IMG/VR virus record: IMGVR_UViG_3300037470_001029
Span: 8,038 to 72,037 of that record
Source of the DNA: a virus
Direction: 5' to 3' (one strand)
Length of the DNA: 64,000 bases
Shown here: positions 1-53,640 of the stretch, one piece after another
Layout: the number at the start of each line of letters is the position of its first letter
How positions within the stretch are numbered: the stretch's first letter is position 1
The notes under the pieces: generated by a model
Told to the model about the DNA's origin: nothing
Database searches by the model: none
Seen by the model: only the letters and a program-made list of their open reading frames with translations
Program-made: the position numbers and the translations under genes

Positions 1-2414
1 ATCTTGCGCGAGTACCACTGCCCGCGTGCAATGGCGTCCATCGCCACGCTCGGTGCGTAGCCGTTGTAACCGTTCTGATCGGTAGCTAAGTTGGTGTCCG
101 TCACGTCCGTGAATGTCACCCTCATGCCACCGTTAGAGAATGACGCCACAACTGGATTTGATGGATCAATAAATACGTCGTACTCAAGGTAGTCGCCAGA
201 GGCTATTACGCGGGCGGAATTGTGAATGTTCCAGAACAGATAGTTATCGCCGCTGCCGTTGAAGTCATAAGCGACCACCAAGCCGTCTTGCGGGTGCAGC
301 AGCACGCGGTCAGCGACCGGCATGCGAGCACGGTTGAGCGCGCCACCGAGATCCACCGGGTTGAGCACCGTCAACTGCAAGTCCTGAGCACCGACGTAAG
401 CGCCATCCAGCTCCACGAGGGTGCCTGCGGCGTCCACGGCGATCTGGCCAGACTCGCTGCGGGCGAGCGCTATCAGCGAGATCTTCGGCGGCTGGTCGAC
501 CAGCATCGTGCTCGTCGTCAGTGCCTCGATCACGGGGCGGATGAATCGCGTGGCGCCCTTCCACGTCTGCCCGGGCTGGCGCGTCCAGTCTGAGCCGTTG
601 TCGCTCGTCTCCAGATAATAGTCGAGCGAGCCGCTGAGCGCCGTTGCGTTCGGCGTCAACTGCCAGTCGCCGGTGACCGTCGTGCCGATGTCCCACGACT
701 CGCCGACGAATTTCGACGTGGCGGAGGCGTGGTAGGAGGCGACCGGGTTGGCTCCGGAGCTCAGCGGGTCTGGCATCACCGTACCCCACTGGTCCGAGGC
801 GACCGACGTCGCCCAGCGCTGCTTCCAGACGCCCTCGAGCATCGGGATGGCAACGAGGTTGGCGCCGGTGAGGTTCGGGTTGACGAACTCGCGGTCCTGA
901 ATGAATGCGTCCGAGTCGCTGGTGATCGTCACGTCGACCGTCGTCGCCGTCGGGCTGCGCAGGCCAACGGAGTCAAGGGCCTTGACGCCGAACCGCCACG
1001 TGCCAATCGGCAGGCCGCTGAACTGCGCGCGCAGGCCGTCGATCCGGTCGATCAAGGTGGCGGTGTCGTAGTTGAAGCTGCCGGGGTCGCCGTACTTCCA
1101 CTCGTAGCGGTCGATGTCGATGTCGACGGCCGCCTCGATCCGAAAGTAGACGGTGCCGCCGACCTCGAACGCAGACAGGATCGACGGCACGTTGCCTGGA
1201 GGCAGCAGCTTGCCGAGCGCCGTGATGGTGTCTGAGAGGATTGAGCTGACGAAGCCGGGGTCGTTGAAGGCCGTGACCTCGACCGTGTAGCCGCGGCCCT
1301 GCTGCGCAGGCGGCGAGGAATAGGAGAGCCCTTTCGTGGTCCTCTCGTCGACGACCAAGAGGCCGTCCATCAGGCGCACGCGGTAGGTGACCGGGTAGTA
1401 GTGCGTCGAGGCCGTCCACGAGACCTTGACCCGGCTCTGGTAGATGAAGCCGCGGCTGAGGGAGTCGCTCGCCTGGTCCTTCTCGAGGTAGACCTCCTCC
1501 GCTAGCACCAGAGACGTCGGCGCCGCGACCGACGTGATGGAAGGCAGCCCGGTGTCAGGCGTATCCGGCGTCGTCTGTACCGTGTCGCTGAACACGTTGG
1601 CGTCGTATTTCCTGAGGCCGATCAGCCAGCGGCCGTAGCCGCGATCCACGCGCCCCATCCCACGCATCGGCGTGGCGGTGAGGCCGATGTCGTCTGTGAC
1701 CGTGAAGCGGTCACCAAGCGTCACCTTGAGGCCGTCCTCGAACACGCCTAGAACCGTCTCGATCGCCTCGAGGTTGTAGTGATTCAACCGCTCGACGGCG
1801 AACCGGTACGCCTGCGAGTAGCGGCGGATGCCAGGCATGTTGATCCGCGCCTTGCGCCGCGTGGTGGGCGACATGTCGGCAACGGCGTAGTCCATCGCCC
1901 ACGGCTTGACGTCCGTTTTAAAATAACCAATCTCGACCACGTTCGGGCGGTTGCGGATTCCTCGCTTGAAGATCGCCGGCAGCGGGTCCTGATCGATGTT
2001 TGCGGCCGTCAGCACGTGGTCAGCCGCGGCGCGCGGCATGTCGGCGATCAGCAAGGCGGTGTGGCCGTGGTAGTCAACCCACGCCGGCACGTACCCTCGC
2101 ATCACGTCGATCCACTCCTCGACGTTCCTGGACTCGGCGATCGTCAGCGTGATTAAGCAGCGCTTCTCCCCGCCGATGATTCCGTCATCGTAGTCGGCGG
2201 CCTCAATCACGAGCTGCCAGTCCACGGGGCGACGCGCACCGTAAACCGTGCTGTTCAGCCAGTCTGCCGTGCACAACGCCGGGTTGTCGCTCCACAGGTA
2301 CGCGGCGGCGGACTGAGCGTAGTAGTTGAGCACAGGCTCCGGGCCGACGGGAACGTAAGGTCCGGCCGAGGAGCCGGCCTCGAGTTGCGCGTAGGTGATG
2401 GTGCCAACGGTCAA
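1..2414 (-). CDS. Tail tip / host-specificity protein (gpJ-like), C-terminal part; runs off the window edge
   Basis: Frame read manually at both ends. It starts at TTG 2414, overlapping the upstream TGA, with GGAG 10 nt upstream. Translation LTVGTITYAQLEAG...YLWSDNPALCTADWL...RNRPNVVEIGYF contains the typical WSDNPA tail-tip motif. Absent from the ORF track, consistent with having no stop inside the window. Confidence 0.8.
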   Translation of the reverse strand, partial: MTVGTITYAQLEAGSSAGPYVPVGPEPVLNYYAQSAAAYLWSDNPALCTADWLNSTVYGARRPVDWQLVIEAADYDDGIIGGEKRCLITLTIAESRNVEEWIDVMRGYVPAWVDYHGHTALLIADMPRAAADHVLTAANIDQDPLPAIFKRGIRNRPNVVEIGYFKTDVKPWAMDYAVADMSPTTRRKARINMPGIRRYSQAYRFAVERLNHYNLEAIETVLGVFEDGLKVTLGDRFTVTDDIGLTATPMRGMGRVDRGYGRWLIGLRKYDANVFSDTVQTTPDTPDTGLPSITSVAAPTSLVLAEEVYLEKDQASDSLSRGFIYQSRVKVSWTASTHYYPVTYRVRLMDGLLVVDERTTKGLSYSSPPAQQGRGYTVEVTAFNDPGFVSSILSDTITALGKLLPPGNVPSILSAFEVGGTVYFRIEAAVDIDIDRYEWKYGDPGSFNYDTATLIDRIDGLRAQFSGLPIGTWRFGVKALDSVGLRSPTATTVDVTITSDSDAFIQDREFVNPNLTGANLVAIPMLEGVWKQRWATSVASDQWGTVMPDPLSSGANPVASYHASATSKFVGESWDIGTTVTGDWQLTPNATALSGSLDYYLETSDNGSDWTRQPGQTWKGATRFIRPVIEALTTSTMLVDQPPKISLIALARSESGQIAVDAAGTLVELDGAYVGAQDLQLTVLNPVDLGGALNRARMPVADRVLLHPQDGLVVAYDFNGSGDNYLFWNIHNSARVIASGDYLEYDVFIDPSNPVVASFSNGGMRVTFTDVTDTNLATDQNGYNGYAPSVAMDAIARGQWYSRK

Positions 2415-3583
2415 GGAAGCTCTGCTCCGGTGAATATCAGGGAACCGCTTGCATTGGTGTAGTAGGGGAAATACCCGTCACCAGCCGTCAACCCCCCGGC
2501 CACCGTGATGACGATAAAGGACGCCCACTGACTACTCGGTGCGCCCCAGGAGATTGCTGTCGCGGCAATACCACCAGATCCCGTCGATAGCGAAATGTGG
2601 GTTGGATCGGAAACAACGATGCCCGTCACACGAACCCTCGTATGAACCGGGAATGTGATGCTTGCCACACAGGCTGTAGATCCAGTTGCGCGCCCAGCTC
2701 CCGGGATCATGTCGGCGGTAGAAGTCGACCGGAAAGCGGGCAGGTAGCGCTGACAGAGTGCTAGCTCTTCCTGTGAATCTCTAACCTCGACCAGCCCATT
2801 TGGAAGTTCACCCAGAAAAAGGCGCACATCGGCGATCTGGAAGATGTTGCCAATGGTGTCGACGCAGTTGACTTGATTCGCAGTGCCAACTAGTGAGCCT
2901 GTCTGCCAGCCGGCGACGCCCTGCGAATTCGTCCCGACGCCAAGCACGAAGTCCAAGCGAGCACCTGTGCCATTGGCGTAGTCCCACGTACCCGCCGAGG
3001 GTGACGCAGGAATTTGAATGACGGCCTCCTCCCAAGTGTTCGTCGTGGTCTGGGTGTATTCCGCGATGAACGAGCGGTCGTAAGCGCCATTGCGGAGCGA
3101 GATGCAGTAGGTGCCGGTCTTGGTGTGCTTGTGCCAGAAGCGAAGCGTCAGTGGGAGCTGGGCATACCCAAGCCAGCGGTAGCCCTCTATTCTGGTCTGC
3201 AGGTTTACGATGTCCGCCGCAGCCATCGCAGCATCTGCTGTGGTTACGGCAACCTTCATGCTGTGCGTTATCAGCCGCCCGGCTTGCGCCATGGTAGGCG
3301 CATCCGCTTCCCGGGTGATTGTGAACACGGCATCTTGGGTGAATGAAATCCACATGTCGGCCGAACGACCACCGGATGCAATTGCAGGGAAGCTCGTTCC
3401 GCGCTGCCACGGGTTCGTCGAAAAATCGCCGCCGATAACGGCGTTGCGCAATCCACGTCCGAGAGCCAGGATTGCCTCTAGCGTTGTGCGGTAGTTCGCG
3501 CCCGCCCGCGCTATCGGAATGATGTCGGCGCTCGGGTCGAGAACCCCCGCGCTACCCCAATCAGACCACTTGTCGTTTGCCAT
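2411..3583 (-). CDS. Tail fibre / receptor-binding-like structural protein carried on an inserted cassette
   Basis: 390 aa. RNAVIGGDFSTNPWQRGTSF and ELALCQRY motifs are common in phage fibre carbohydrate-binding-like modules. GC looks somewhat lower than the flanks. Confidence 0.7.
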   Translation of the reverse strand: MANDKWSDWGSAGVLDPSADIIPIARAGANYRTTLEAILALGRGLRNAVIGGDFSTNPWQRGTSFPAIASGGRSADMWISFTQDAVFTITREADAPTMAQAGRLITHSMKVAVTTADAAMAAADIVNLQTRIEGYRWLGYAQLPLTLRFWHKHTKTGTYCISLRNGAYDRSFIAEYTQTTTNTWEEAVIQIPASPSAGTWDYANGTGARLDFVLGVGTNSQGVAGWQTGSLVGTANQVNCVDTIGNIFQIADVRLFLGELPNGLVEVRDSQEELALCQRYLPAFRSTSTADMIPGAGRATGSTACVASITFPVHTRVRVTGIVVSDPTHISLSTGSGGIAATAISWGAPSSQWASFIVITVAGGLTAGDGYFPYYTNASGSLIFTGAELP

Positions 3584-5457: not shown

Positions 5458-8400
5458 TCAGCCCCCGTCGTTCACGACGGTCGTGTTGACCCGGTTATCT
5501 TCGACGCTGATCCCGACATCGACGCGGTGTGTGGTGTTCGCGTTGGTGTTCGCGGCCTGGAGCTGCGTGTTCGCCGCAGCCGTCTGCGTCGCCGCCCCGG
5601 CGGTGATCGCCTCCTTGATGGCGTCCAGCGCCGATTGCATCTGCGTCGCGGCCGTGGTCTGGATGTCGGTCAGGTGCGTGGTGATCGCGCTCTGCGCCGC
5701 GCGGCCGTCCTCGAGGAATTGGGTGCGCAGCGCCGTCTGCTGCTCGGGCGAGAGCAGGCTCCACGCCGACGAGATCGACGAGGTTACGATCCCGGCCTGA
5801 CGCTGGATCTCCGCCGGGTCAGTCGAGAGCAGCGCCGCGTCCCGCGCATCGTTGGCCTGCCGCTGGTAGAACTCATACTGCTGCTGCGCCGTCATCCCGG
5901 ACAGCTCGATGGACTGGAGTACCGTGTCGAACATCCCAGTGACCGCCAGCCTGACCTGCTCGATGCTTGCGAGCAACTGGACCTGCGCGTTGTAGTAGTC
6001 GACCGTCGCCTGCGCGAGCGCCTGCGTTGATTCGAGACTTCCGTCGTACGCTTCGAGCTGGGCGCGGATCGCCCGGTCGTTGTTGCTCAGCGCGGTCTGG
6101 AATTGGTTCGACGACTCGTAGAGCATCGTCGCCACGTCCTCCATCGGGCTGCGGCTGACCACTTCGAAGATGGTCACCAACGCAACGATCCCGTCGATCA
6201 GCTCCGCCTGGGTTCCCCTGAACTTGTCGATGTAGCTCCGGATGTAGCCGGTCGCCTCTCCAAGGACGAGCGCCGCCTGCTCGACGAACACGTCATTCAA
6301 GAACTGCGCGATAGCAGCGTCCACTTCCTCTTGCCCGGAGGTGCTCGTGAGCTGGAGGACGAACTCGTGCGTGTAGTTCTCCAGGATCGCGGCGGCGTCC
6401 ACCCCGATCAGCTTGCCGAGCGCGACCATCTGCTTGTGGATCTGGGCGAGCGCATCGGTGAACGGCGCTGCCTGATCCGCCGTCAGCTCCTCGCTCTCCG
6501 TCCAGCGGCGGTCGCTGCGGAACCAGCCGCCGGCCTGCGAATAGTCCTGCCACGACCTCCCACCCTCGATCTCACCGGCGCCGGTGACCGTGCCACTGAT
6601 CCCGGATGCGTCGGCCTGCGTCGCACGGCGGCCCCAGATCCGCGTGTGCAGGGACGAGCCGCTGAGCAGCGAGGCCGCGCGGTCGCCGAGGCCCAGGCTG
6701 CGCAGGAGGCGGTCGCCGGTCAAAGGACCGCCAGGCATATCGGCAATCCCGCTCTGGTCGTCCGCCCGCCAGCCGCGCTGGTACATGGCGTCGTTTGCGA
6801 TCATCGCTGCGATGACAATCGCCACAATACCGGCAACGGCCATCCCGCTCATCGGTGTTGCACCAGCCGCGGCCGTCGAAGAACCGCCGCCGACCACGTT
6901 GCCGAATGTAGCGGCCGTAACCTGCCCGCCTGCCGCCGTAGTAGCCCCAGTGCCGGTCAGCGCACCCCACGCAGTCGAACCGCCCTGGTAGGCGCTCCAT
7001 GCGCCGCTCGCATACTCGTACACCGCGCCGGCCGTGCTACCCTGCCCAGCAGCACTAGCCGCAATCGACAGAGCGCCGTTGCCGGTGATGTTCGCAGCAA
7101 GGTTCAGCACCATCTTCGTCGCGAACAGTTGGATTAGCTCGGCGAAGAACTGCTTCCACATCCGCTTGAGCATATCAACAGCGTTCTCGTTGTCGACGAT
7201 CACAGCGGTCAGGAACGTACCGATGTAGTTGCCGACCTCGGCCCATAACGAGATCTGGTCTTGAACATGCCGGCGCAGCTCCTTCTCGCTCTGCTTATTC
7301 GCCTCCTTCTCGTCGATCAAGCGCTGCTCGGCCGCGGACTTGCTCATCTTGCCCATTGCGATTAAGCCGTCCTCATACTCCTTGATCTGCGCCTCGATGT
7401 ACTTGACCCACCCAGCGTCATCGAGGTCGCGCATCTTGTTCTGTTCCGCGTGAAAGGCTTCAAGCGCCTTCAGCTCGTCCGCGAGCGCCTTGCTCTGCTC
7501 TCGCCTCAGCTCGTCCGCGGATTTCTTCGCCTCCTGAAGACGCTTCGCGTACATCGCCTTCTCTTTGGCTTGCCTTGCCAGGATAGCGGCCTCCTGCCCG
7601 GCGATTGCCTTGGCGTCCTGCTCCGCTATCAGTTTCGCGTGGGCCACGTGGGCCGCCTGCGCCGCGTCGGCGGCGACCTTGTCCTTGTCGGCGGCGAGCC
7701 CGAGCGCCTGGCGAAGCCGGAGGGAGATTTCGAGCACAGCGTTCGCCGCCTTGATCGGCGCCGTGTCGCCGATTACCTTCAGGAATTCGGCCCACCAGTC
7801 CTTCGCCGTGCGCACCGCGTCGGCCATCAGGCTGACGTTGTGGGCGAGGTTGTCCATCATCGTGTTGACCTTCTCGCCCTCCTCCGGTGTGCCGCGCCAG
7901 GCGCGGAGCAGATCGTCCCACGCCTTCTGCAACGGGGTCAGCCCCTCGTTATGCAGGCCGTCGATCCGCCCGTGGAGCGCCTCGAGCGCGATAGCCTGGA
8001 TCCCGGCGGCATCGCCAACCTCGACCATCGCCTGGACCTGCTTGTACTGGTCGAAGGTCAAGATGTTGTACTTCTCGTCGAGCGCGATCACGCCGGTCAA
8101 CGGCTTGCCGAGAGCCGCGGCGAGCTCCTCGGCGGCGCCGGCCGCATCCACGCCCATCGCGCGCGCGAAGTCCGGGACCATTCCCGTCAGCTCGCCGAAC
8201 ATCTCCCGACCGATGGCTCCCTGCTTGGCGAAGGACTGCACGACCTTCATCGCCATCTCTTCCGAGACGTTGCTCACCTTCTTGAGGGTCTCGACGTAAG
8301 TAGACAGCTCGCCGCTCGAGACTATCCCAGCGCGGCCGGTGCCGGCAAGCAGAGCCCCGGTTGCGCCGATGCTCTGGTTGAACTTTTCGATGTCGACGCC

Positions 8401-9018
8401 GTGCTTTATCCAGACGCCGAATGCGGCGCCGACCGCCAGCGCCGGGGCAAGCATCGCCGCGAGCCCCTTAACCGCCGCCCACGAATGGGTGGCAAGCTGG
8501 GCGAGCTGGCGCAGCGCCATCGGGAAATCGCCGCGCATCAGGGCCTGGGCCATCTGCATGAGGTCCGTCTTGGCGCGCTGGGAGAACGAGCCCACCTTTG
8601 CTCCGGTCTCGTCCACGACGCCACCCATGTCCTGGAGGACCTTGATCGCCTGTTCAGTCTCCTTGTTGTAGCTGCCTTGCGCACCACGCAATGCCGCAAT
8701 CGCGGCCGTCGCCTCATCGGCCGACATCTTGTAGTTCTTGAGGGCGCTTGCCGCGACCTCCTCGGCCTTCGCCTGCTGCTGCACCGCCTGCGTGGCGCTG
8801 TCGATCGACCTTGTCGTGTGCTCGAAACGGGCCTTGACCTGTTCGAGAGTCTCGCCGGTGCGCTTCATGACACTTTGGTATGCCATGTCTTCGTTGGATA
8901 GCCGCTTGACCTGCGCCTCGGTGCGCCCGCCCGCCTCGGTCACCGAGTCGAGCGCCGACTTCGCCGTGACGGCGGACGTGGAGTCGATCTCGATGCCCAG
9001 GGAAGCGATGTCGGTCAT
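5458..9018 (-). CDS. Tail tape measure protein
   Basis: 1186 aa, Ala-rich and helical; N-terminus MTDIASLGIEIDST; follows the chaperone pair. Confidence 0.92.
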   Translation of the reverse strand: MTDIASLGIEIDSTSAVTAKSALDSVTEAGGRTEAQVKRLSNEDMAYQSVMKRTGETLEQVKARFEHTTRSIDSATQAVQQQAKAEEVAASALKNYKMSADEATAAIAALRGAQGSYNKETEQAIKVLQDMGGVVDETGAKVGSFSQRAKTDLMQMAQALMRGDFPMALRQLAQLATHSWAAVKGLAAMLAPALAVGAAFGVWIKHGVDIEKFNQSIGATGALLAGTGRAGIVSSGELSTYVETLKKVSNVSEEMAMKVVQSFAKQGAIGREMFGELTGMVPDFARAMGVDAAGAAEELAAALGKPLTGVIALDEKYNILTFDQYKQVQAMVEVGDAAGIQAIALEALHGRIDGLHNEGLTPLQKAWDDLLRAWRGTPEEGEKVNTMMDNLAHNVSLMADAVRTAKDWWAEFLKVIGDTAPIKAANAVLEISLRLRQALGLAADKDKVAADAAQAAHVAHAKLIAEQDAKAIAGQEAAILARQAKEKAMYAKRLQEAKKSADELRREQSKALADELKALEAFHAEQNKMRDLDDAGWVKYIEAQIKEYEDGLIAMGKMSKSAAEQRLIDEKEANKQSEKELRRHVQDQISLWAEVGNYIGTFLTAVIVDNENAVDMLKRMWKQFFAELIQLFATKMVLNLAANITGNGALSIAASAAGQGSTAGAVYEYASGAWSAYQGGSTAWGALTGTGATTAAGGQVTAATFGNVVGGGSSTAAAGATPMSGMAVAGIVAIVIAAMIANDAMYQRGWRADDQSGIADMPGGPLTGDRLLRSLGLGDRAASLLSGSSLHTRIWGRRATQADASGISGTVTGAGEIEGGRSWQDYSQAGGWFRSDRRWTESEELTADQAAPFTDALAQIHKQMVALGKLIGVDAAAILENYTHEFVLQLTSTSGQEEVDAAIAQFLNDVFVEQAALVLGEATGYIRSYIDKFRGTQAELIDGIVALVTIFEVVSRSPMEDVATMLYESSNQFQTALSNNDRAIRAQLEAYDGSLESTQALAQATVDYYNAQVQLLASIEQVRLAVTGMFDTVLQSIELSGMTAQQQYEFYQRQANDARDAALLSTDPAEIQRQAGIVTSSISSAWSLLSPEQQTALRTQFLEDGRAAQSAITTHLTDIQTTAATQMQSALDAIKEAITAGAATQTAAANTQLQAANTNANTTHRVDVGISVEDNRVNTTVVNDGG

Positions 9019-30245: not shown

Positions 30246-30854
30246 TCACCCCTTCCGACGCCGCGCGTCCTTGAACTCGATTGTCACCGCGACGGGAGGC
30301 GGGGCCTCGCCGTCGTCCTCTGGCTGCGCGCCCTTGTCCTTGGAGTAGAGGCCGAAGTGCTTCATGGCCTGGTCGCGGGCCGCGTGCCTGGCGGGGAACT
30401 TGACCTTGGCGGTGGTGACGCTCAGGAGGGTCACCTCGTCCTTCGAGCCCTTCTTTCCCTTCAAGACCTTAGAAACCTGGTCGACGTCGACGCCCTCTAA
30501 CTCGAGGCGCACCTCGTCGGGCATGTCCTGCACCCTCTTCAGGGTCCCATCCTCGTTGTACATCAGGCCTGGGTCGAAGCGCATCGCCCTGGCGAGCGAC
30601 CTGATGACCTCCTCCGCGGTGAGGGCAACCATATCCCCAAGTTCTTTGGAGCGGAACTCGATCATTTCCTTGACCCAAGGGTCTTTGAGAATCGCGTAGG
30701 CGCATTCTCCGGCGGTTTTCGGGCTGTAGCCCACTGCCCTGGCCGCGGCGCTCGCGTTGCGGTTGTTCGCGAAGTATGCATCCACGAACAAGCGCTTGCG
30801 CTCCTGCGACCTAGTCTTTGATGTTCCTGCCTTCGCCCGCTTTGCTGCCGCCAC
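30246..30854 (-). CDS. terS: Terminase small subunit
   Basis: RLFVDAYFANNRNASAAARAVGYSPKTA HTH and the LTAEEVIRSLAR...FDP motif. Confidence 0.88.
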   Translation of the reverse strand: MAAAKRAKAGTSKTRSQERKRLFVDAYFANNRNASAAARAVGYSPKTAGECAYAILKDPWVKEMIEFRSKELGDMVALTAEEVIRSLARAMRFDPGLMYNEDGTLKRVQDMPDEVRLELEGVDVDQVSKVLKGKKGSKDEVTLLSVTTAKVKFPARHAARDQAMKHFGLYSKDKGAQPEDDGEAPPPVAVTIEFKDARRRKG

Positions 30855-30949
30855 ATTCCCGCCTTCCTATCCCAATATTTCCGTTCGCCTCTCCATGCCG
30901 CAGCATCATGCACCTGCCCGGCAGCAGGTGTAACCCATGCCGAGGCGCG

Positions 30950-31275
30950 GCGCAGGCCGAAATTTTGTGTTATTTGGAGGAGGTCTGCTATGGCGGCGGG
31001 GCCGAACGGAGGCCGAAATTAACGCAATCCTAACGGAATAATGGGACTTTCGTTATCGCGATTTCTCATAGCGGAAATCGCGATTTCATAACAGAATTAA
31101 CAGTTTATTCTTTATCTATATATAAGAGTAAAAATAGTAAGGTAGTAATAATAGCAGAGTAAAAGAGAAATAATAGCTATAAGCTTGGTGCGTTTTTCCG
31201 ATTTCTGTTTTCGCGACCTGGGAGCCTTGGTCGCCGACCCGCGTCCGAAGTCCGTTTCCATAGCGGAAAATGCCG
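30950..31275. other. AT-rich non-coding region with palindromes and repeats (candidate origin or packaging site)
   Basis: Palindrome GAAATCGCGATTTC (31074-31087), two copies of CATAGCGGAAA, two of GAGTAAAA, and a very AT-rich core at 31085-31185; lies between the divergent arms. Confidence 0.5.
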
Positions 31276-31289
31276 AAATATCTAACTGG

Positions 31290-31319
31290 TTTACAAGTTG
31301 CTCGTTGAAAAAATATAAT
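31290..31319 (+). promoter_or_regulatory. Sigma70-like promoter
   Basis: TTTACA-N18-TATAAT upstream of the replication operon. Confidence 0.55.
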
Positions 31320-31377
31320 GTCGGTTCACTGAAATTCGTGCTTTGGATGCGCCTCCGGGCGCCTTGGGAAGACAAAA

Positions 31378-31812
31378 ATGCCGAACGTGCTGATCGCCAT
31401 ACCCGACCTAGTGCTGGGCGAAATAGACGCCGAAGTGGCGAGGGAGAACGCGAAGAGGGCGGCCGAGGCGCCGAGGCCGCGGGCCAGGACGAAGGCCAAG
31501 GTGCCGCCGCTCAGCAAAGCGGAGCTGGATGACCTGACGCTCAGAGCGCACGAGATCCGCAGGGAAAAGGGGCTCGCTGCCGCGAACGAATTCCTGAAAG
31601 GGGAGAGCCAGAAAAGGAAGGACGCGCATTGTGCGAAGCGAGCAGCCGAGCGTGCACTTGATCGGGCGCCGAAGAAGCTCACCCGCACGGCGCTGGCGAC
31701 GCGTCTGCTGATACTGGGCTTCGACACGCACCAGGCCGACAGGAAGAGGAGCGGCAACGGCAAAGTGCCAGGCAGGCGCAGGCCGACCAAGGCGCAGGCC
31801 GCAGGCGCGTGA
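31378..31812 (+). CDS. Basic hypothetical protein, possibly DNA-binding
   Basis: 144 aa; first gene of the operon; GTGA overlap with the primase. Confidence 0.55.
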   Translation: MPNVLIAIPDLVLGEIDAEVARENAKRAAEAPRPRARTKAKVPPLSKAELDDLTLRAHEIRREKGLAAANEFLKGESQKRKDAHCAKRAAERALDRAPKKLTRTALATRLLILGFDTHQADRKRSGNGKVPGRRRPTKAQAAGA

Positions 31813-33872
31813 AGAAGGCCAACGGGGCGCGCGGCCCTCTGGCCGCGACGGATTTCTCCCCGCGCGCCCTAGGTCTCGCCGACCTGAGGCGCTCGGGCCT
31901 GGACGAGTCCGATGCCGCGCGCATGCGCCTGAGCTTTTTATCCGGCAGGCAGACCGCGGCCCTCGGGGCAAATTTCAAGGACCGCCCGAGCCTGAAGATA
32001 CCGTACCACGACGCGGCCGGCAAGCCGACAGGGTTCTTCCGCGTCAGGTACCTGGGGCCGGAAGAGGGGCTCGACGCGCTCGCGAGGAAGCCGCAGCGCT
32101 ACGCGCAGCGCGAGGGGACGAAGCCCGAGCTGTACTTGCCGCTCGGCGTACCGTGGAAGAAGCTCTCCGGCAGCGAAGCGGTCACGGTGTGGATCACGGA
32201 GGGGGAGAAGAAGGCGGCGAGCGCCTGCAAGTCGGGCGTCGCGACGGTGGGGCTCGGCGGCGTCTGGTCGTGGAAATCCACGAGGGAGGGCATACCGTTC
32301 CTGCCGGCGCTCGAGGCGATCGGGTGGAAGGGGCGCCAGGCGCGCATCGCCTTCGACTCCGACGTCGCGACGAACTCGCAGGTCCTGCGCGCCCTGCTGG
32401 CGCTGGCCCGCGAGCTGACCGGGCGCGGGGCGCAGGTCAAGATAGTGGAGATCGGCGACGGGCCGGAGGGCAAGAAGCGCGGCATCGACGACCTGATCGC
32501 CGAGGAGGGCAGGGGCGCCCTCGTCGACCTTGAAGAATCGGCCAAGCACTTCAGCGAGTCCGAGGAGCTGTGGCGGCTCAACGAGGAGGTGGTCTACATC
32601 AAGGACCCGGGCCTCATCGTCGTGCTGGCCGACGGGCGCAAGATGAGCGCGGCCGCGTTCAAAGAGCATGCCTACGCGAATCGCTCATACACGGAGACGC
32701 GAGTCGACAAAGACGGCAACCCGAGCCAGGTCGAGAAGCCGATCGCGCCGGCATGGCTGGCGTGGCCCCACCGCGCGGAGCTGGCGCGCGTCACCTACGA
32801 GCCGGGGGCGCCGCGCGTCACCGCCGGCCGCGGCTACAACTACTGGAAGGGCTGGGGGTGCGAGCCGCGCGCGGGGGACACCAGGCTCTGGTCGGAGCTG
32901 CTCGACTTCATGTTCGGAAAGAACGTGGGCACGCGGACGTGGTTCGAGCGCTGGTGCGCCTGGCCCCTGCAGCACCCGGGCGACAAGCTCTACACCGCGG
33001 CAGTCATCTGGGGCGTCGCGACGGGCACGGGAAAATCCCTGATAGGCTACTCGCTGGCGAAGATATACGGCGAGAACTTCTCCGAGATCACCGACCAGGA
33101 CCTGCAGAACCAGTTCAACGAGTGGGCCGAGGGCAAGCAGTTCGTGATGGGCGACGACGTCGCGGGCAGCGAGCACAAGAAGGGCACCGCCGACCGGCTC
33201 AAGTTCATGGTGACCCGCCAGCAGATCAGGCTGAACCCGAAGTACGTGCCATCGTTCGTGTTGCCGGACCGCATCAACTACTACTTCAATTCCAACCACC
33301 CGGACGCTTTCTTCGTCGAAGACGACGACAGGCGCTACTTCGTGCACGAAGCGCCGCCAGAGCCCATCGAGGGCGATTTCTACAGGCGCTACGACGACTG
33401 GCTGCGGTCGAAGGCCGGGCCTCCAGCGCTGTTCCACCACCTGCTGCAACTCGACACCGGGGACTTCGATCCGAAGGCCCGCGCCTTCGAGACGCGGGCA
33501 AAGCGCGCCATGATCTCGGATGCGAAGTCCGACGTCGCCGCGTGGGTGGCCCGCCTGGCAGAGGACCCGGATTCGGTGCTGCGGCTCGGGGAGGTGAGGC
33601 TGGAGCGCGACCTGTTCACCAACGCGCAACTGCTGGCGCTGTACGATCCGGAGGGCAAGGGGCGGGTGACCGCGAACGGGCTGGGGCGCGAGCTCAAGCG
33701 CGCCGGCGTCAGGCAGGCGCTCGAGGGGCAGGTCGTGGCCGCGGCGTCGGGCGCCGGCCGCTACTACGCGGTCAGGAACGCGGGTCGCTGGCTGCGGGCC
33801 GACCACGCGGAGGTCGCGGCGCACCTGTCGGGCGCGTCCAGGCCAGAGAAGAAAAGGGGGAAGTACGCGTGA
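31809..33872 (+). CDS. Primase-helicase (Toprim/DUF3854-like plus SF3 helicase)
   Basis: ITEGEKKA, IAFDSD, GIDD, Walker A GVATGTGKS, FNSNHPDA, DDRRYFV. Confidence 0.9.
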   Translation: MKKANGARGPLAATDFSPRALGLADLRRSGLDESDAARMRLSFLSGRQTAALGANFKDRPSLKIPYHDAAGKPTGFFRVRYLGPEEGLDALARKPQRYAQREGTKPELYLPLGVPWKKLSGSEAVTVWITEGEKKAASACKSGVATVGLGGVWSWKSTREGIPFLPALEAIGWKGRQARIAFDSDVATNSQVLRALLALARELTGRGAQVKIVEIGDGPEGKKRGIDDLIAEEGRGALVDLEESAKHFSESEELWRLNEEVVYIKDPGLIVVLADGRKMSAAAFKEHAYANRSYTETRVDKDGNPSQVEKPIAPAWLAWPHRAELARVTYEPGAPRVTAGRGYNYWKGWGCEPRAGDTRLWSELLDFMFGKNVGTRTWFERWCAWPLQHPGDKLYTAAVIWGVATGTGKSLIGYSLAKIYGENFSEITDQDLQNQFNEWAEGKQFVMGDDVAGSEHKKGTADRLKFMVTRQQIRLNPKYVPSFVLPDRINYYFNSNHPDAFFVEDDDRRYFVHEAPPEPIEGDFYRRYDDWLRSKAGPPALFHHLLQLDTGDFDPKARAFETRAKRAMISDAKSDVAAWVARLAEDPDSVLRLGEVRLERDLFTNAQLLALYDPEGKGRVTANGLGRELKRAGVRQALEGQVVAAASGAGRYYAVRNAGRWLRADHAEVAAHLSGASRPEKKRGKYA

Positions 33873-34411
33873 GCCTCAATACTGAACCATCGGCTTATGC
33901 TTTTGACTTATTCGCTGATATAAAGCATGCACCAAACAGAAAAGCTACGCCCTCTCAAATAGTGCAGAAAGTTTTGCTTTCGCGTGAAAACGTCCATAGC
34001 TTAGGGTTTAACAGGGCTCTCCTTAGAGCTACTATTGACGACGCAATCGAAGAAGATCGCGGAGAGGCTTACCTGCGCAGGCTGAATAAATGGGTCGGAG
34101 CAAGAACTAAGCTTAGAAGTGCTTCAGAGAATATTGCCCTCTTGAGCGAGGTTAAGTACTACGGCTCTCGTATAGTGCCAGACGCTTTTTTGCTTTGCCC
34201 TAGCAAGAAGACCGTCGTTTGCTATGAAGTAGAAGACCGTCACGCGCTTCCAGCTAGGACATTAAGCAATTACCTACAGTTATGGTTTGCCCTTGAGTAT
34301 CTTTATTGGGATCTTCATTTGATCTCTTACGATACTTTTGGCAACCCTAGAATTATAGAAGTTTTAAGCACTGGTATGAGTGCTCTGCGCTTGCTAGGAG
34401 AAGATTGGTGA
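33869..34411 (+). CDS. Low-GC protein with a PD-(D/E)XK-like nuclease motif
   Basis: IVPDAFLL...VVCYEVED; markedly AT-richer than the flanks; GTGA overlap. Confidence 0.55.
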   Translation: MSLNTEPSAYAFDLFADIKHAPNRKATPSQIVQKVLLSRENVHSLGFNRALLRATIDDAIEEDRGEAYLRRLNKWVGARTKLRSASENIALLSEVKYYGSRIVPDAFLLCPSKKTVVCYEVEDRHALPARTLSNYLQLWFALEYLYWDLHLISYDTFGNPRIIEVLSTGMSALRLLGEDW

Positions 34412-48540: not shown

Positions 48541-49025
48541 TGGAAGTCTACCTAGGTCCGTGCGCAATGATACACGCGATGGCTTTCGTGCGCTCGACGC
48601 ACCGTCGCCTGCCGAAGATTCTAGGCGGTATGTGGGCAATAGGGCTATACGGCAAGCGCGGCGCGCTGCTGGGAGTTGCCATAGTCGGCAGGCCCTCGGC
48701 CCGCCTGCTCGACGACAAAAGGCGTCTGGAGATAACCCGCGTCGCCGTCAGGGCCAAGGTTCCTAACGGCTGCTCGATTCTCTACGGAGCATGCTCGCGG
48801 GCCGCGAGGGCGATGGGCGCCTCGGACCTGATCACCTACATACACTCCGACGAGCTGGGCGCGAGCGTGCGGTCCGCCAATTTCGTAGAGATGAGCATCG
48901 CGGCGAAGGGCCCGCGCGACTGGAGAAGGAGTAGCATCGACTGCGGGCGAACCGCCCCGCACGACAACTTGCCGAAGCGCCGATTCCTGGCGCCTTGGTC
49001 AGAAATGCTGAAACAAGGAGACTGA
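48537..49025 (+). CDS. XF1762/Mom-like GNAT-fold protein
   Basis: FVRSTHR...GVAIVGRPSARLLDD...LEITRV...NGCSILYGAC...LITY. Confidence 0.7.
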   Translation: MMEVYLGPCAMIHAMAFVRSTHRRLPKILGGMWAIGLYGKRGALLGVAIVGRPSARLLDDKRRLEITRVAVRAKVPNGCSILYGACSRAARAMGASDLITYIHSDELGASVRSANFVEMSIAAKGPRDWRRSSIDCGRTAPHDNLPKRRFLAPWSEMLKQGD

Positions 49026-49029
49026 AGAT

Positions 49030-49785
49030 ATGCCCACCAAGGCCAAGGCCGCTCTGCTCAGGTTCACCGCGTGGAGCTGGTCGCGCTTCAACGACCACCG
49101 CCGCTGCGCATTCTACGCGTTCTGCAAGTACCTGCGTAAGCTGCCGGAGCCGGGCTCGCCGGCGATGGACCGCGGCGGCGCGATCCACAAGCTCGCGGAG
49201 GACTGGACGCTCGGCAAAGGCGACAAGCTGCCGCCGGAGCTCAAGCTCTTCAAGACGGAATTCGCGCACCTTCGCAAGATCAAGGCTAATGTCGAGGGCC
49301 AGATCGCCGTCGACCGCATGTGGAAGCCGACCGACTGGTTCGGCAAGGACGCCTGGCTCCGCGTCGTCACCGACGCGCGCTACGAAGAGAACCCGAAGGA
49401 CGGAAAAGTAGTTTCCGCGATCGACCACAAGACCGGCAAGATCTACGAGGAGAACGACGAGCAACTCTCGCTTTACATCCCGGCGCTCTTCTCGCATTAC
49501 CCGCGCGCCGACGAGATCAACCTGAAGCTCTACTACCTCGACCAAGGCGAGGAGCGCCTGTACCGCTACCGCCGCGAGGGCATCGCCAGGCCGCGCGAGC
49601 TGCCGCCCGCCAGGAAGGGCGGCGCGCCGGTCGTCGAGAAGGCGCCCTCGCACGTAGCGCTCATGAAGATCTGGACAGAGAAGTCCTACCCGATCCTGAC
49701 CGACAGGCAGTTCGTCGCGACGCCGAACGACAAGTGCCGCTTCTGCCACTACAGGAAGTCGAACGGCGGCCCTTGCCGATACTAG
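49030..49785 (+). CDS. Cas4/RecB-like PD-(D/E)XK exonuclease
   Basis: WSWSR...C...RGGAIH...IDHKTGK...QLSLY...CRFCHY...C. Confidence 0.85.
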   Translation: MPTKAKAALLRFTAWSWSRFNDHRRCAFYAFCKYLRKLPEPGSPAMDRGGAIHKLAEDWTLGKGDKLPPELKLFKTEFAHLRKIKANVEGQIAVDRMWKPTDWFGKDAWLRVVTDARYEENPKDGKVVSAIDHKTGKIYEENDEQLSLYIPALFSHYPRADEINLKLYYLDQGEERLYRYRREGIARPRELPPARKGGAPVVEKAPSHVALMKIWTEKSYPILTDRQFVATPNDKCRFCHYRKSNGGPCRY

Positions 49786-49794
49786 GAGGCCTGA

Positions 49795-50331
49795 ATGAGA
49801 GACATCATGATAGACCTGGAGACGATGGGGACGCGGGCAGGCTGCGCCCTGGTCTCCATCGGCGCGGTCGCGTTCGGACCCAAGGGCCTTGGAGAGGAAT
49901 TCTACGAGGTGGTAAATTCGGCATCTTGCAAGGGGCTCTTCGTCGACGTAGACACGGCCGCCTGGTGGTCAAAGCAGTCGCAAGAGGCCCGCGAGGTACT
50001 GCGGCTCGCATCGCGCAAGGCCAGCAGCCTTCCTCTCCCGAAAGCGCTCTGGAAGTTCCGCGCCTACGTCCGCGGCGTCAGCGTCGACGCGAGGGTATGG
50101 GGCAACGGAGCCGACTTCGACCTGCCGATACTGGCGGCGGCCTACGCGTCGATAGGAGAGGACGCTCCCTGGCCGCCGTTCAACGGCCGCTGCTACCGCA
50201 CGCTGAAAGGCCTGGCCCGCGAGGTCAAGCTAGAACGCGGCGGCACGCACCACAATGCGCTGGACGACGCCAAGACGCAGGCCTTGCACCTTATCAAAAT
50301 ATTGAAGAAGCTAAAACTGGAGGTAACATGA
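49795..50331 (+). CDS. DEDDh 3'-5' exonuclease
   Basis: MIDLETMG...WGNGADFD...HNALDDA. Confidence 0.85.
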   Translation: MRDIMIDLETMGTRAGCALVSIGAVAFGPKGLGEEFYEVVNSASCKGLFVDVDTAAWWSKQSQEAREVLRLASRKASSLPLPKALWKFRAYVRGVSVDARVWGNGADFDLPILAAAYASIGEDAPWPPFNGRCYRTLKGLAREVKLERGGTHHNALDDAKTQALHLIKILKKLKLEVT

Positions 50332-50738
50332 GGAAGGCCGCAAAAAATGCGCCGGGATTTTCTCGCGCCAAGGGGAAGCCGCTGAAGAGGCCGCGGCGCA
50401 TCAATCGGACGGAGGCCTCGGTGGAAGGCGCCTGCTGCCGCTACCTGAAGAAGCTCGGGCTCGTGCACCGCAAGATGAACGGGTTCGGCTTCAACGCCTG
50501 GCCCGACAGGATGATCCTGCCGCCGAACATGGGCGCTCCCTGGAGCAAGAACAGCGTCCACGGGCATGTTCTGTGGGTAGAGCTGAAGAGGCCGCTCGAA
50601 GATCCGACTCCGCTGCAGGCCAAGCTGCACGACGACCTGCGATGCAGCGGCCAGGAAGTCTGCGTCGTCCGCTCGGTGGAAGAATTCAAAGAGGTGGTGA
50701 ATGCGTTCCACAGAAAATACTGCCCGATCGATATTTAA
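50328..50738 (+). CDS. VRR-NUC domain nuclease
   Basis: TEASVE...WPDRMIL...WVELKRP...TPLQ. Confidence 0.8.
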   Translation: MRKAAKNAPGFSRAKGKPLKRPRRINRTEASVEGACCRYLKKLGLVHRKMNGFGFNAWPDRMILPPNMGAPWSKNSVHGHVLWVELKRPLEDPTPLQAKLHDDLRCSGQEVCVVRSVEEFKEVVNAFHRKYCPIDI

Positions 50739-51179
50739 ATGAGCAGATCTCCAGCTCATTGCGCTTACCAGGCAAAGCTAGAGAAAAAGGGTTTGCGCGA
50801 ATGCCCTAAATGCAAGAAGATCAAAAAGCTGAGATACTTTGGCCGACATTCGCAAACCAACAATGGTCTTTGCTGGTGTCTTAAGTGTAATCGCGCAGCG
50901 TCTATTGGATGGCATAGGAAAATCAAGGCAGAGGTCTTTGCGCATTACGGCAGCAAGTGCCGCAAATGCGGAGAGTCGGATATAGATGTCCTGACCATAG
51001 ATCACATCGATCAAAAGGGCTCGGTGCACAAAAGAAGCCTGAGTTTGACAAGTGGTAGCAAAATGTGGAGGTGGCTCCGCGAAAATAATTATCCAAAAGG
51101 CTTCAGGCTGCTATGCTTTAATTGCAACGTCAAAGAGTACCGAAAGTTCCTCTACCGTAAAGAGAAGGAAATGATATGA
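50739..51179 (+). mobile_element. Free-standing HNH-type (homing) endonuclease gene
   Basis: CPKC/CLKC zinc finger, CRKC...LTIDHID...LLCFNCN; strongly AT-richer than the flanks. Confidence 0.75.
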
Positions 51180-52670
51180 AAGGAGTCGAGCCCTTCCGGG
51201 TTGAGGCTCAGGCCTGGGTTCCGGTCCCGTTCATGCTGCGCGCCATGCGCTTCATGCTTGAACGCGGCGCGGCTGGCCTGCTCCTTGACCCGGGCTAGTT
51301 GAGGCATGCGCAAGACCTCCATCAGCCTGGCGGTGATGAAGATCCTGAAGAAGAACCACCGCCGCTTCCCGTTCCTGGTGATCGCGCCGCTGCGCGTCTG
51401 CCAGCTCGTGTGGCCCAAGGAGCTGAAGAAGTGGAAGGAGTTCTCCGGACTCACGATGGAGATACTGCACGGCCCGAAGAAGGGCGAGGCACTGCGCAGG
51501 AAGGCCGACATCTACGTGATAAACCCGGAGGGCCTCGACTGGCTCTTCGAGGAGCTTCGCGGCATCAACGGCTGGCCGTTCGAGGGACTGCTCGTCGACG
51601 AGTCGACCAAGTTCAAGCGCGCGTCGTCGCTGCGCTCGCGGCTGCTGCGCGGCTACCTGCCGATGTTCAGGCGCCGCTACATACTCACGGGCAGCCCGTC
51701 GCCCAACGGGCTCATCGACCTCTTCGGGCAGATACTGGTGCTGGACCTCGGCAATGCGCTCGGCCGCTACGTCACGCACTACCGCCGCGATTACTTCTTC
51801 CCTATGGAAGGCCGCTGGATACCCGAGGAGGGCGCGGAGGAGAAGATCTACAAGCGCCTCCGCCCGCTCGTCGTGCACATGGACGCGGCAGACTACATCA
51901 AGCTGCCGCCGCTGATCGGCGACATCACGAGCGACGAGCCGCTCATCACCGAGGTCGAGCTCCCGCCCGCTGCGCGCAAGATCTACGACGACATGGAGGA
52001 GAGCCTCATCGCGATGGTGGACAAGGGCGTGGTCACCGCGGCGAACGCGGCCGTGGCGATGATGAAGTGCCGCCAGATCGCCAACGGCGGCATCTACAAC
52101 GACCCCGAGCGCAAGAGCTGGAGCAAGATACACGACGCAAAGACCGACGCGGTGCTGGAGCTGGTGGAGTCCCTGCAAGGACAGCCGCTGCTCGTCGCGA
52201 TCGACTTCAGGCACGACGAGGACAGGCTCTTGCGCGCGCTCCCGCCGGGCACGCCCTCGTTCTCCGGAGGAAAGTCGCTCAAGGAAGCGCAGCGCATCGA
52301 GGCCGCGTGGAACGCCGGCGACCTGCCCGTGCTGCTCGGCAACCCGCAGTCCGTCGCGTGGGGGCTAAACCTGCAGGAGCACGGACGCGCGGTCGCGTGG
52401 CACTCGCAGACCTGGGATTGGGAGCAATACATGCAGTTCATCCGCCGCGTCTGGCGCAGCGGGCAGAAGGGCCGCGTGTTCGTCCACCACATCGTCGCGC
52501 GGCACACGGTGGACAGGCCCATGCTCTCCGCCGTGAAGCGCAAAGGCAAGGACGAGGGCGCGCTGCTGCACGCGCTGCGCGAGTACGCGGAGGAGAAGCT
52601 CGGGCGCCGAGTCAAGGCGCAAAAGAAGAAGGGCGCCGGAGCGCCCTTCAAGGGTCGTGCGAAGCGCTAG
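51176..52670 (+). CDS. SNF2-family helicase, interrupted in Walker A by a 10-nt gap (51296-51305)
   Basis: 51176-51295 encodes ...GLLLDPG and then hits TAG. From 51306 the frame reads MRKTS...IAPLRV...VDES...LTGSP...GLNLQ...RVWRSGQ. Removing 10 nt restores LDPGMRKTS. Confidence 0.85.
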
Positions 52671-52912
52671 CCCACCGTGTAATCTGGGTGGCCCTTGCTC
52701 GCGAGGTAGGCGCACCATCCCTTGTAGCGTGCCTCGTACGCGCTCCCCGCGGAGCCGTGCCAGTAGAACTTGTCCGGCCCGTGGAACTCCCAGTGGTCCC
52801 TGTCGAAGTGGTAGGTCCAGGTCTCCTTGCGCTGCGCCGCGGTCGTGTACTCGCGGACCTCGGGCATCACCTGCGCGAGCAGCGCGCGTCCGAAGTCGGA
52901 ATCGAGGCTCAC
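52667..52912 (-). CDS. Hypothetical protein
   Basis: 81 aa; GTGA overlap; converges on the helicase stop. Confidence 0.55.
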   Translation of the reverse strand: MSLDSDFGRALLAQVMPEVREYTTAAQRKETWTYHFDRDHWEFHGPDKFYWHGSAGSAYEARYKGWCAYLASKGHPDYTVG

Positions 52913-53397
52913 AGGAGTTCCATCTCGGCGCGGTACTCCGTCAGCATTTCCAACCTTCCCTCGAAGCGCTGCGCGATGCTGCTCTCGACCGCGGCCTTCT
53001 CGCCGTCGACCGCGTTAGAGAAGGCGCTGCTGCTGCCCCGCGTGTACCGGTTATTCGCCGCGTTTGCACGGAACTGCTGCGCGTGGTAGCTGAGCACCTC
53101 GAAGACGGTGTGGCCGCTCGCGATGTCGGAGAGCACTTCTACCGCGATCTGCGCCGCATAGTCTTCCTTGACTCCGTGGCCCCAAGAGGCTTCGTACACC
53201 AGCGAGCCGGCGCTGCTGAGCAGCTTCTTCGACAGCTCTTCGCGCGACTGCTTGCCGATTTCGACCAAGTCTTCGAGGTACTTCATGACGCGCGCCTCTG
53301 CGTCGCTGTACTTCTGCTCCGGCGTGCGCTCGTCGATCGGCTGCACGAAGGCGGGCTTCGCCACTTTGTAGTCACCGGTTCTGCGATGCTTGCTCAT
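52909..53397 (-). CDS. Hypothetical protein
   Basis: ATG 53397 with AAGGAG RBS, downstream of the leftward promoter. Confidence 0.6.
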   Translation of the reverse strand: MSKHRRTGDYKVAKPAFVQPIDERTPEQKYSDAEARVMKYLEDLVEIGKQSREELSKKLLSSAGSLVYEASWGHGVKEDYAAQIAVEVLSDIASGHTVFEVLSYHAQQFRANAANNRYTRGSSSAFSNAVDGEKAAVESSIAQRFEGRLEMLTEYRAEMELL

Positions 53398-53430
53398 GAT
53401 CTTCTCCTTGGGTTGCACTGCAATGAATGA

Positions 53431-53460
53431 AGCATAGCGTAACCATGGGATACCGCAAGC
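53431..53460 (-). promoter_or_regulatory. Leftward sigma70-like promoter
   Basis: TTGCGG-N16-TATGCT with an A-rich upstream tract. Confidence 0.6.
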
Positions 53461-53640
53461 ACTTTATTTTCAGGCATCCTCTGGTTTCTGGCGTGCTTCC
53501 GTCCAGGCATCCCCGTACCACATGCTGAAACTGGCTAGTTAGCCGCTTGCTTGCGCTCCGACCGGTTTGGGTGCATTATATAGGTACGGCAGGCGGCGTG
53601 CCAGAGGACTTGGATCGCCACGAAATAAACTTCAAAAAAA

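Follow-up and report, generated by a model that had tools for sequence, protein, structure and literature searches.

A candidate 10-nt ribosomal hop in the P-loop of a phage SNF2 helicase, and a recurrent class of stop-containing inserts associated with HNH endonuclease genes

A stretch of 64,000 nt of viral DNA (hereafter the window), corresponding to bases 8038-72037 of the 72,037-nt IMG/VR record IMGVR_UViG_3300037470_001029 (CheckV completeness 100%), carries a gene for an SNF2 helicase whose P-loop (motif I, or Walker A motif) is interrupted by a stop-containing gap of 10 nt, 117 nt downstream of the end of a gene for a free-standing HNH endonuclease. The explanation that we favor, with some reserve, is that ribosomes cross this gap by a 10-nt hop from one GGC codon to another, and that the gap is tied to the homing endonuclease encoded next to it. 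Inserts of the same kind are found in helicases of the same family in 22 other distinct contigs, 8 of them viral and 14 from Bacillota prophages. The window gap thus belongs to a class of P-loop inserts that recurs in this family, each insert being 4-12 nt long and containing a stop, and is not the isolated invention that it was taken for in the prediction, made from the window sequence, from which this analysis started (the original prediction).

On the plus strand, the region 51281-51314 reads CTC CTT GAC CCG GGC TAG T TGA GGC ATG CGC AAG ACC (Table 1). There is no cognate triplet between the candidate take-off GGC and the candidate landing GGC. The TGA at 51300-51302 terminates the sole upstream open reading frame (ORF) of the downstream frame (51201..51302), and the upstream frame, if its TAG is ignored, stays open to 53089 (ORF 51299..53089). 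The two helicase frames do not overlap, and a single-nucleotide shift, whether +1 or -1, therefore cannot join the two halves; for the +1 shift this had been correctly foreseen from the position of the TGA. A single frameshift was rejected on this ground. Decoding of the TAG as a sense codon was also rejected, as it leads into a 596-codon frame that is not that of the helicase, and so was decoding of the TGA, which leaves the downstream frame open upstream but without a helicase N-terminus. No tRNA genes were found in the 64-kb window, and thus no suppressor. The 13-mer of the gap occurs once in the window, 1.5 occurrences being expected at two mismatches or fewer. The bare syntax of a hop, that is, a codon, a stop, at most 15 nt and the same codon between long open frames, has about 80 chance occurrences in the window; since it is this common by chance in a GC-rich window, it is meaningless without continuity of the protein.

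Continuity of the protein was assessed by comparison with homologues, for which the gene was read through with an X at both stops. The read-through protein aligns end to end with phage helicases, with 45% identity to that of Stenotrophomonas phage AXL3, and is 69-73% identical to four metagenomic proteins (73% to P0002). Motif I is complete only when the 10 nt are skipped. The aligned homologues have an unbroken DPG-L/M-R/G-KTS; the sequence is GLRKTS in the five closest (P0002-P0006) and GMRKTS in P0010. Because these motifs are unbroken, removal of the 10 nt gives the P-loop of the family, its Arg included, so that the earlier claim that hopping restores the family motif is borne out by the alignment. 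In a metagenome scan of relatives' loci (at most 41% identity), the region was present in 111 of 112 loci and interrupted in none. The C-terminal part is that of an SNF2 helicase (PF00176, SNF2-rel_dom, E 6.1e-12; phrog_62, DNA helicase, E 1.2e-107), the helicase C-terminal domain PF00271 being matched at E 5.7e-4 and 20.6 bits, below the cut-off of 23.5. At columns that are otherwise invariant, the window helicase has 2 private changes in 104, against 0-6 in 15 other sequences. With no excess of private changes, the helicase is without sign of decay, and the rest of the gene is intact, as had been noted, over a C-part of 454 codons.

In the clade of the window (the window, P0002-P0006, P0008, P0010 and others), Arg stands in the place of the second Walker A Gly, and more distant relatives have GLGKTS; the P-loop of the Arg variant would be degenerate, in a SNF2 helicase that is conserved otherwise. 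Of two further homologues, P0007 (442 aa, on a 61-kb contig) begins after the P-loop, and P0117 begins with MNGLGKTS. Both may be further disrupted alleles of the helicase.

The gap is present in two assemblies. In a sequencing run, X1 (Logan), one contig of 71,475 nt spans positions 49000-53500 of the window with 0 differences over 4,501 nt and at a depth of 13, and no X1 contig is without the 10 nt, the gapped allele being the sole allele assembled in that run; X1 is probably the source sample of the record, which makes this a second assembler and not a second sample, and contigs were compared, not raw reads. In a run from another study, X2, a contig of 4,677 nt is about 81% identical over 51232-51662. 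Between 51289 and 51302, this relative omits 1+3+5+1 = 10 letters; at 51306 it has a C where the window has an A. X2 also holds exact pieces of this phage, 151-162 nt long and at a depth of 2-2.7, two of which lie inside the HNH gene; none of the exact pieces among the matches listed crosses the gap. The presence in the helicase Walker A motif of a 10-nt gap with the arrangement GGC-TAG-T-TGA-GGC is confirmed by the sequence and by the second assembly, and comparison with the relatives makes it an insertion.

One other gapped allele, that of the contig L163, was found with the search syntax D-P-G, stop, at most 14 nt, G-x-x-K-T; the rest came from a wider sampling of loci. Gaps were present in 3 of 78 viral loci (seed contig excluded), in 5 of 79 loci of a second viral set, one of which repeats a contig of the first, and in 14 of 80 Bacillota prophage loci; the 22 contigs comprise both viral sets, the prophage set and the contig L163, with the repeat removed, and they include complete isolate genomes. 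The stop follows the take-off codon directly in 22/22. The landing triplet repeats the take-off codon in 8, is synonymous in 9 and is AGY in 5 of the alleles. The skipped lengths are 4, 6, 7, 8, 9, 10, 11 and 12 nt and thus cover all three frames, and the insert follows one of three residues of the P-loop: the first Gly, the Leu or the second Gly. In five alleles the arrangement is exactly codon-stop-codon (L199, L223, L202, L363 and L365), for example CTT TAG CTT in L199, CTG TGA CTG in L223 and GGT TAA GGA in L202; L199 and L223 are 70% identical and their take-off and landing codons covary. Longer gaps are GGT TGATTAA GGT in L265 and L346, GGT TGAGATTAA GGT in L302, GGT TGACTGA GGC in L383, and GGA TAGCTA GGT, followed by ATG, in L394. 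The gap of L163 (GGT TAG TT GGC, 8 nt) is at the same codon boundary as that of the window. Besides L163, searches with a TAGTT motif and a GATCC pattern returned only chance or out-of-frame matches.

Four prophages (L380, L396, L399 and L407; one Ruminiclostridium and three Paenibacillus) have a 4-nt insert, GGT-TAG-C before AAA, at a site that precedes the start of the match (2501) by about 36 nt. The triplet before their Lys codon is AGC, and L347 lands on AGT. As AGC is not a Gly codon, a strict matched-codon hop does not fit those four prophages.

Both halves of the gene are retained in other gapped alleles. The 14 prophage alleles have intact C-parts of 421-441 codons, and L264, L265, L267 and L302 have intact C-parts of 425-439 codons, in DNA with a GC content of 28-53%. 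Among the latter four, the ratio of nonsynonymous to synonymous substitution rates (dN/dS) is 0.12-0.20 for the C-part (dS 0.49-1.03) and 0.04-0.16 for the N-part of 31-40 codons, one pair being saturated. L265 and L302 are sisters on a quick tree (support of 98 in the Shimodaira-Hasegawa-like approximate likelihood-ratio test, SH-aLRT), and their gaps differ by a 2-nt indel (10 and 12 nt); their dN/dS is 0.14 for the C-part and 0.15 for the N-part at a dS of about 0.7. The frame relation between the halves has changed in this pair and yet both halves are constrained, which fits hopping, not frameshifting or readthrough. In L264, L265, L267 and L302 the gap would be kept under selection, provided that it is ancestral.

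The gene directly upstream of the window helicase codes for the HNH endonuclease. Its ATG comes after the TAA of the preceding gene and its TGA overlaps the ATG of the helicase at 51176 (ATGA), an overlap that had been noticed earlier and that the ORF list confirms. The GC content of the gene is 0.45-0.47, against about 0.64 in the flanks. No homologue was found in 112 relatives' loci (best tblastn E 0.42). Of 247 relatives' loci, at least 152 have, as their nearest ORF upstream of the helicase, an endonuclease gene of the phrog_93 type, like the gene that precedes the HNH gene in the window. The foreign composition, the absence from relatives and the normal adjacency of the two neighbors mark the HNH gene as an insertion. 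The protein gives a Pfam HNH match of E 0.026, under the cut-off, and homologues of at most 56% identity conserve the columns CxxC...DH...N...CFNCN; the intact-looking gene, its foreign composition and the phrog_2255 match bear out the adjacent HNH gene of the original prediction. One of the homologues, P0134, resembles the window protein over some 70 residues only; its divergence beyond them is of the kind expected from a frameshifted copy. Nothing convincing in the way of hop syntax was found beside the HNH gene in 49 loci of HNH relatives.

Gaps and HNH genes are associated in viral and in prophage loci. In the viral sets with the window added, 4 of 9 gapped and 7 of 238 intact loci have an HNH gene directly upstream (Fisher p 0.0002), as do 3 of 14 gapped and 0 of 66 intact loci in the prophage set (p 0.004), although the locus sets hold near-duplicate contigs and the tests overstate independence; the HNH queries for the viral sets were taken from gapped loci, and intact loci were also checked by eye. 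Three different HNH families are found beside gaps. A low-GC ORF of 136 aa directly precedes the intact helicase of L177 and L178 (2504-2914) and has a weak endonuclease VII-like match (E 1.2e-05); a nuclease-like insert can therefore occur without a gap.

The locus of L163 suggests how gap and endonuclease come together. Its helicase is 39% identical to that of the window, the first six bases of the gap, TAGTTG, are common to both, and a different endonuclease, HNH_3 with NUMOD3 (phrog_1872, phrog_826), is encoded directly upstream. Upstream of the HNH_3 gene there is a 24-codon remnant of the start of the resident helicase (L163 7770-7850, minus strand; L175 2245-2316), which in L163 is identical at 18 of 24 positions to the intact relative L176, and a second N-part, after the HNH gene, ends at the gap. 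The remnant and the second N-part indicate that endonuclease, replacement N-part and gap arrived as one block. In L163 a gene for a protein of 288 aa (7763-8626, minus strand; PF18724, amino acid:DNA transferase, E 9e-07) lies between the endonuclease gene and the helicase region, and is also present in L176, L179 and L181; it hints at DNA hypermodification in the phage group of L163.

In the hop that we favor for the window, the ribosome would translate 40 codons and reach a state with peptidyl-tRNA-Gly on the GGC at 51293-51295 and UAG in the A site. In a fraction of the ribosomes the tRNA would then unpair, slide 10 nt and re-pair on the GGC at 51303-51305 instead of allowing termination; decoding would resume at the AUG at 51306, giving a single full-length SNF2 helicase with the P-loop of the family. 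The insert would most likely break the recognition site of the endonuclease, in the most conserved DNA of the gene, and so leave the phage's own genome uncut. The hop, its efficiency and the protection of the target site are what we infer from this arrangement. The 22 other gapped alleles make a ribosomal bypass, as originally predicted, the best general explanation of the gap. We see about equal grounds for and against a broader view, that bacterial ribosomes are in general able to make short stop-hops with few signals, and that homing endonucleases have exploited this repeatedly, an HNH element inserting beside a phage SNF2 helicase gene and planting a stop-containing insert of 4-12 nt in its P-loop codons. 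Such an insert would ruin the nuclease target at little cost to the host gene, because ribosomes of bacteria as different as those of high-GC sediment, Clostridium and Paenibacillus would hop it.

Several observations weigh against a hop in the window, and some against its extension to the class. A 101-nt RNA fold around the gap is unremarkable (z -0.35; 66 of 200 shuffles as good). The 7-bp stem that had been proposed, CCTTGAC/GTTGAGG with the GGC in its loop, can be folded (-8 kcal/mol), yet its stability is at the level of chance (z 0.03; equalled or surpassed by 97 of 200 shuffles), so that this component of the predicted bypass is not supported. By inspection, the 40-aa N-part has no Lys-rich motif resembling the KKYK nascent-peptide motif of T4 gene 60, a signal about 25-30 residues before the P site, though it may carry peptide signals of another kind. 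There is no Shine-Dalgarno (SD) sequence well placed 5' of the landing codon, the sole SD-like element, GAGG at 51301-51304, overlapping that codon. With no supported RNA structure, gene-60-like peptide or useful SD, a hop would be expected to be signal-poor and its efficiency is possibly low; in addition, the strong pairing of the tRNA with GGC may hinder take-off. The five closest homologues are uninterrupted. A degenerate form of the gap pattern had 0 matches in viral_contigs, and the 40-aa N-fragment, compared with 5.8 billion proteins, matched itself alone; the exact allele is a singleton and gives no sign of having persisted under selection. In the class, the AGY landing triplets (5/22) are not Gly codons. 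On the quick tree, the gapped alleles do not group apart from the intact ones (7 gapped rows require 6 changes), so that gaps may be gained or lost often and the dN/dS values may partly predate them. An adjacent HNH gene is missing from over half of the gapped alleles. These HNH-less alleles could have lost the endonuclease once it had been inserted, as described for MobA of phage T4.

The window gap could instead be a null allele, a recent inactivating lesion such as an HNH repair scar or damage from endonuclease drive, in a phage that tolerates loss of the helicase. We hold this to be unlikely. It would agree with an allele that is a singleton with no sign of persistence, with intact nearest relatives and with the failure to find recoding signals beyond the codons themselves, and a staggered cut followed by fill-in could by itself make a 3-nt direct repeat. 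A random 10-mer, however, has a stop as its first triplet with a chance of 3/64 and repeats the preceding codon in phase with a chance of about 1/64, and the stop comes directly after the take-off codon in 23/23 gapped alleles when the window is included. The gapped allele is, moreover, the only one assembled, at a depth of 13, from a complete 72-kb phage genome, in a helicase gene without an excess of private changes, and the other gapped alleles keep both halves intact at a dN/dS of 0.04-0.20.

Less likely still, in our judgement, is a split gene, in which translation would stop at the UAG at 51296-51298 and restart 7 nt downstream at the AUG at 51306, the 40-aa and 454-aa products then assembling. 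The polypeptides of T4 gp39/gp60 and of Aeh1 NrdA, split by homing endonuclease genes, assemble into active enzymes. Split-gene products that reassemble have been described for insertions of MobA and MobE (bioRxiv 10.1101/2022.08.31.505936). The start codon lies directly after the gap, at a stop-start distance of 7 nt and with a GAGG at hand, and the residue at this position is Leu in 109 of 116 top homologues and Met in 7; the X2 relative likewise has CTG. That the resume codon is an ATG where most homologues have Leu favors a restart and counts against a hop, a rare Met being what is expected if a start codon had been selected. The cut would, however, fall inside the P-loop, between the Gly that ends the strand and Arg-Lys-Thr, and the halves have no added C- or N-terminal extension tails as in the MobA and MobE splits. 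The GAGG is only 1 nt from the ATG, whereas 39 of the 73 SD spacings inferred in this genome are 5-9 nt, and GAGG-N-ATG opens no other long ORF. A restart would also leave the matched GGC codons unexplained. It is not a general mechanism for the class either: the next in-frame start in L163, L199, L202 and L223 lies past or far from the GKT codons, and in the other printed gapped sequences no start codon stands beside the gap except in L394, so that restart cannot rescue most gapped alleles. The dismissal of a restart in the original prediction was nevertheless too firm, Met being a minority residue at 51306. An assembly or sequencing artefact is very improbable: only contigs were compared and X1 may be the record's own sample, but the two assemblies agree over the 4,501 nt, no X1 contig is without the 10 nt, a non-repetitive insertion of 10 nt is an unusual type of error, and inserts of the same kind occur in the 22 other contigs with their isolate genomes.

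The hop that we propose has its closest counterpart in T4 gene 60, where the coding gap protects against self-cleavage by MobA (Manning and Atkins, bioRxiv 10.1101/2022.08.31.505936; Atkins et al., 2016, PMC5009743). As in gene 60, take-off and landing codons are matched Gly codons with UAG right after the take-off codon, and the insert lies in a highly conserved motif of a gene for DNA metabolism, with a free-standing HNH gene upstream at a distance of a few tens to about 120 nt. The single block formed by endonuclease, replacement N-terminal segment and gap in L163 is also like the gene 60/MobA arrangement, as are the frequent loss of the endonuclease while the gap stays and the differing endonuclease families beside similar gaps. 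The window differs from gene 60 in the length of the gap (10 nt against 50 nt), in lacking a KKYK-type peptide, an SD 6 nt before the landing codon and a take-off stem-loop better than chance, and in the gene concerned, an SNF2 helicase and not a topoisomerase, with no sequence homology to the gene 60 cassette; in the class, moreover, the inserts are of various lengths and occupy various positions in the P-loop. In T4, bypass and protection of the target site have been shown experimentally; in the window both are putative.

A second counterpart is the large terminase gene of Streptomyces phage phiHau3, which has two 10-nt coding gaps and for which a junction peptide was identified by mass spectrometry (Antonov et al., 2023; PMC10732093). 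Bypassing, and not +1 frameshifting, was shown with UAA as the 5' codon in E. coli, and a +1-frame UGA inside the gap raised recoding to 225% of wild type (PMC10732093). The window resembles phiHau3 in that a 10-nt block disrupts the frame of a conserved phage gene, the sequences on either side of the block being contiguous in relatives, and its gap naturally holds a +1-frame TGA. In phiHau3, however, the A-site codon is a rare sense codon, UUA, which serves as a sensor for regulation, and a 5' stem-loop and an SD have been proposed, whereas in the window it is a stop; and the available text of that paper holds no mention of HNH (0 mentions), whereas the window gap is linked to a homing endonuclease.

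The syntax of the window gap, a codon, a stop, a short spacer and the same codon, is also that of the engineered stop-hop constructs of 1987, which worked with low efficiency (as cited in PMC5009743). The 2016 review in which they are cited says that natural in-frame stop-hops were not known, and that shorter matched-codon counterparts have 'long been presumed' (Atkins et al., 2016; PMC5009743). The byps of Magnusiomyces capitatus mitochondria are similar in being many short inserts with little messenger RNA context and sometimes an imperfect codon match (compare AGY in 5/22), and differ, as far as the review describes them, in being mitochondrial, in affecting many genes, in having an unused codon in the A site and in having no link to an endonuclease (PMC5009743).

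Known natural cases of bypassing are very few, namely T4 gene 60 and its homologues, the yeast mitochondrial byps and the phiHau3 candidates. The byps of Magnusiomyces capitatus are 27-55 nt long. No paper on gaps in helicase P-loops was found in the literature, subscription journals and supplements being outside the reach of the search, and the evidence supports in part the view that the window gap is translational bypassing tied to a homing endonuclease, a known kind in a new variety, of a class not yet in print. If so, T4 gene 60 would have many miniature counterparts in nature, the window gap among them, and the gaps, varying in length, frame and codon, would form a natural mutational series from which minimal rules for take-off and landing could be drawn. 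Their link to three HNH families would illustrate the means by which selfish nucleases escape their own activity, and annotation of such genes as split genes or pseudogenes would be a mistake. Several of the gapped prophages are carried by named strains that can be cultivated, among them Clostridium guangxiense WZ_1 (L340), Clostridium amylolyticum DSM 21864 (L347), Ruminiclostridium cellobioparum DSM 1351 (L380), Paenibacillus thailandensis TISTR 1827 (L396) and P. bouchesdurhonensis Marseille-P3071T (L399), and the idea is therefore open to proteomics.

Table 1. Features of the interrupted helicase gene and of the two genes upstream of it (window coordinates).
Feature	Position	Strand	Basis or remark
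Upstream endonuclease gene	50328..50738	+	phrog_93 'endonuclease', E 2.7e-18; no Pfam match
Free-standing HNH endonuclease gene, 146 aa	50739..51179	+	phrog_2255 HNH endonuclease, E 2.8e-11
Helicase N-part, 40 codons to the take-off codon	51176..51295	+	ORF 51176..51298, ends LLLDPG; aligns with N-termini of homologues
Candidate take-off codon GGC, first Gly of the P-loop	51293..51295	+	Sequence; homologue alignment
Putative untranslated gap TAGTTGA	51296..51302	+	TAG (51296-51298) shuts the upstream frame, TGA (51300-51302) the downstream frame
GAGG, Shine-Dalgarno-like, 1 nt before ATG 51306	51301..51304	+	Sequence; overlaps the landing codon
Candidate landing codon GGC, first cognate triplet 3' of take-off	51303..51305	+	Sequence
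Helicase C-part, 454 codons, starts MRKTS	51306..52670	+	PF00176, phrog_62; ATG is the resume codon or a possible restart codon

The endonuclease encoded upstream of the HNH gene is presumably VRR-NUC-like. Elsewhere in the window, two low-GC islands (30801-31200 and 34001-34400) showed neither an HNH gene nor a broken neighbor when their ORFs were inspected. The second (GC 0.455) coincides with an ORF of about 175 aa (33880-34411, plus strand), right after an ORF of 687 aa (31809..33872), and no HNH motif was recognized by eye in the 175-aa ORF. The stretch 30855-31377, of low GC (0.48), has no long ORF and lies between divergent genes; it is probably a regulatory region. An ORF of 390 aa on the minus strand (2411-3583), between two tail-gene ORFs, has a slightly lower GC content (0.58-0.60).

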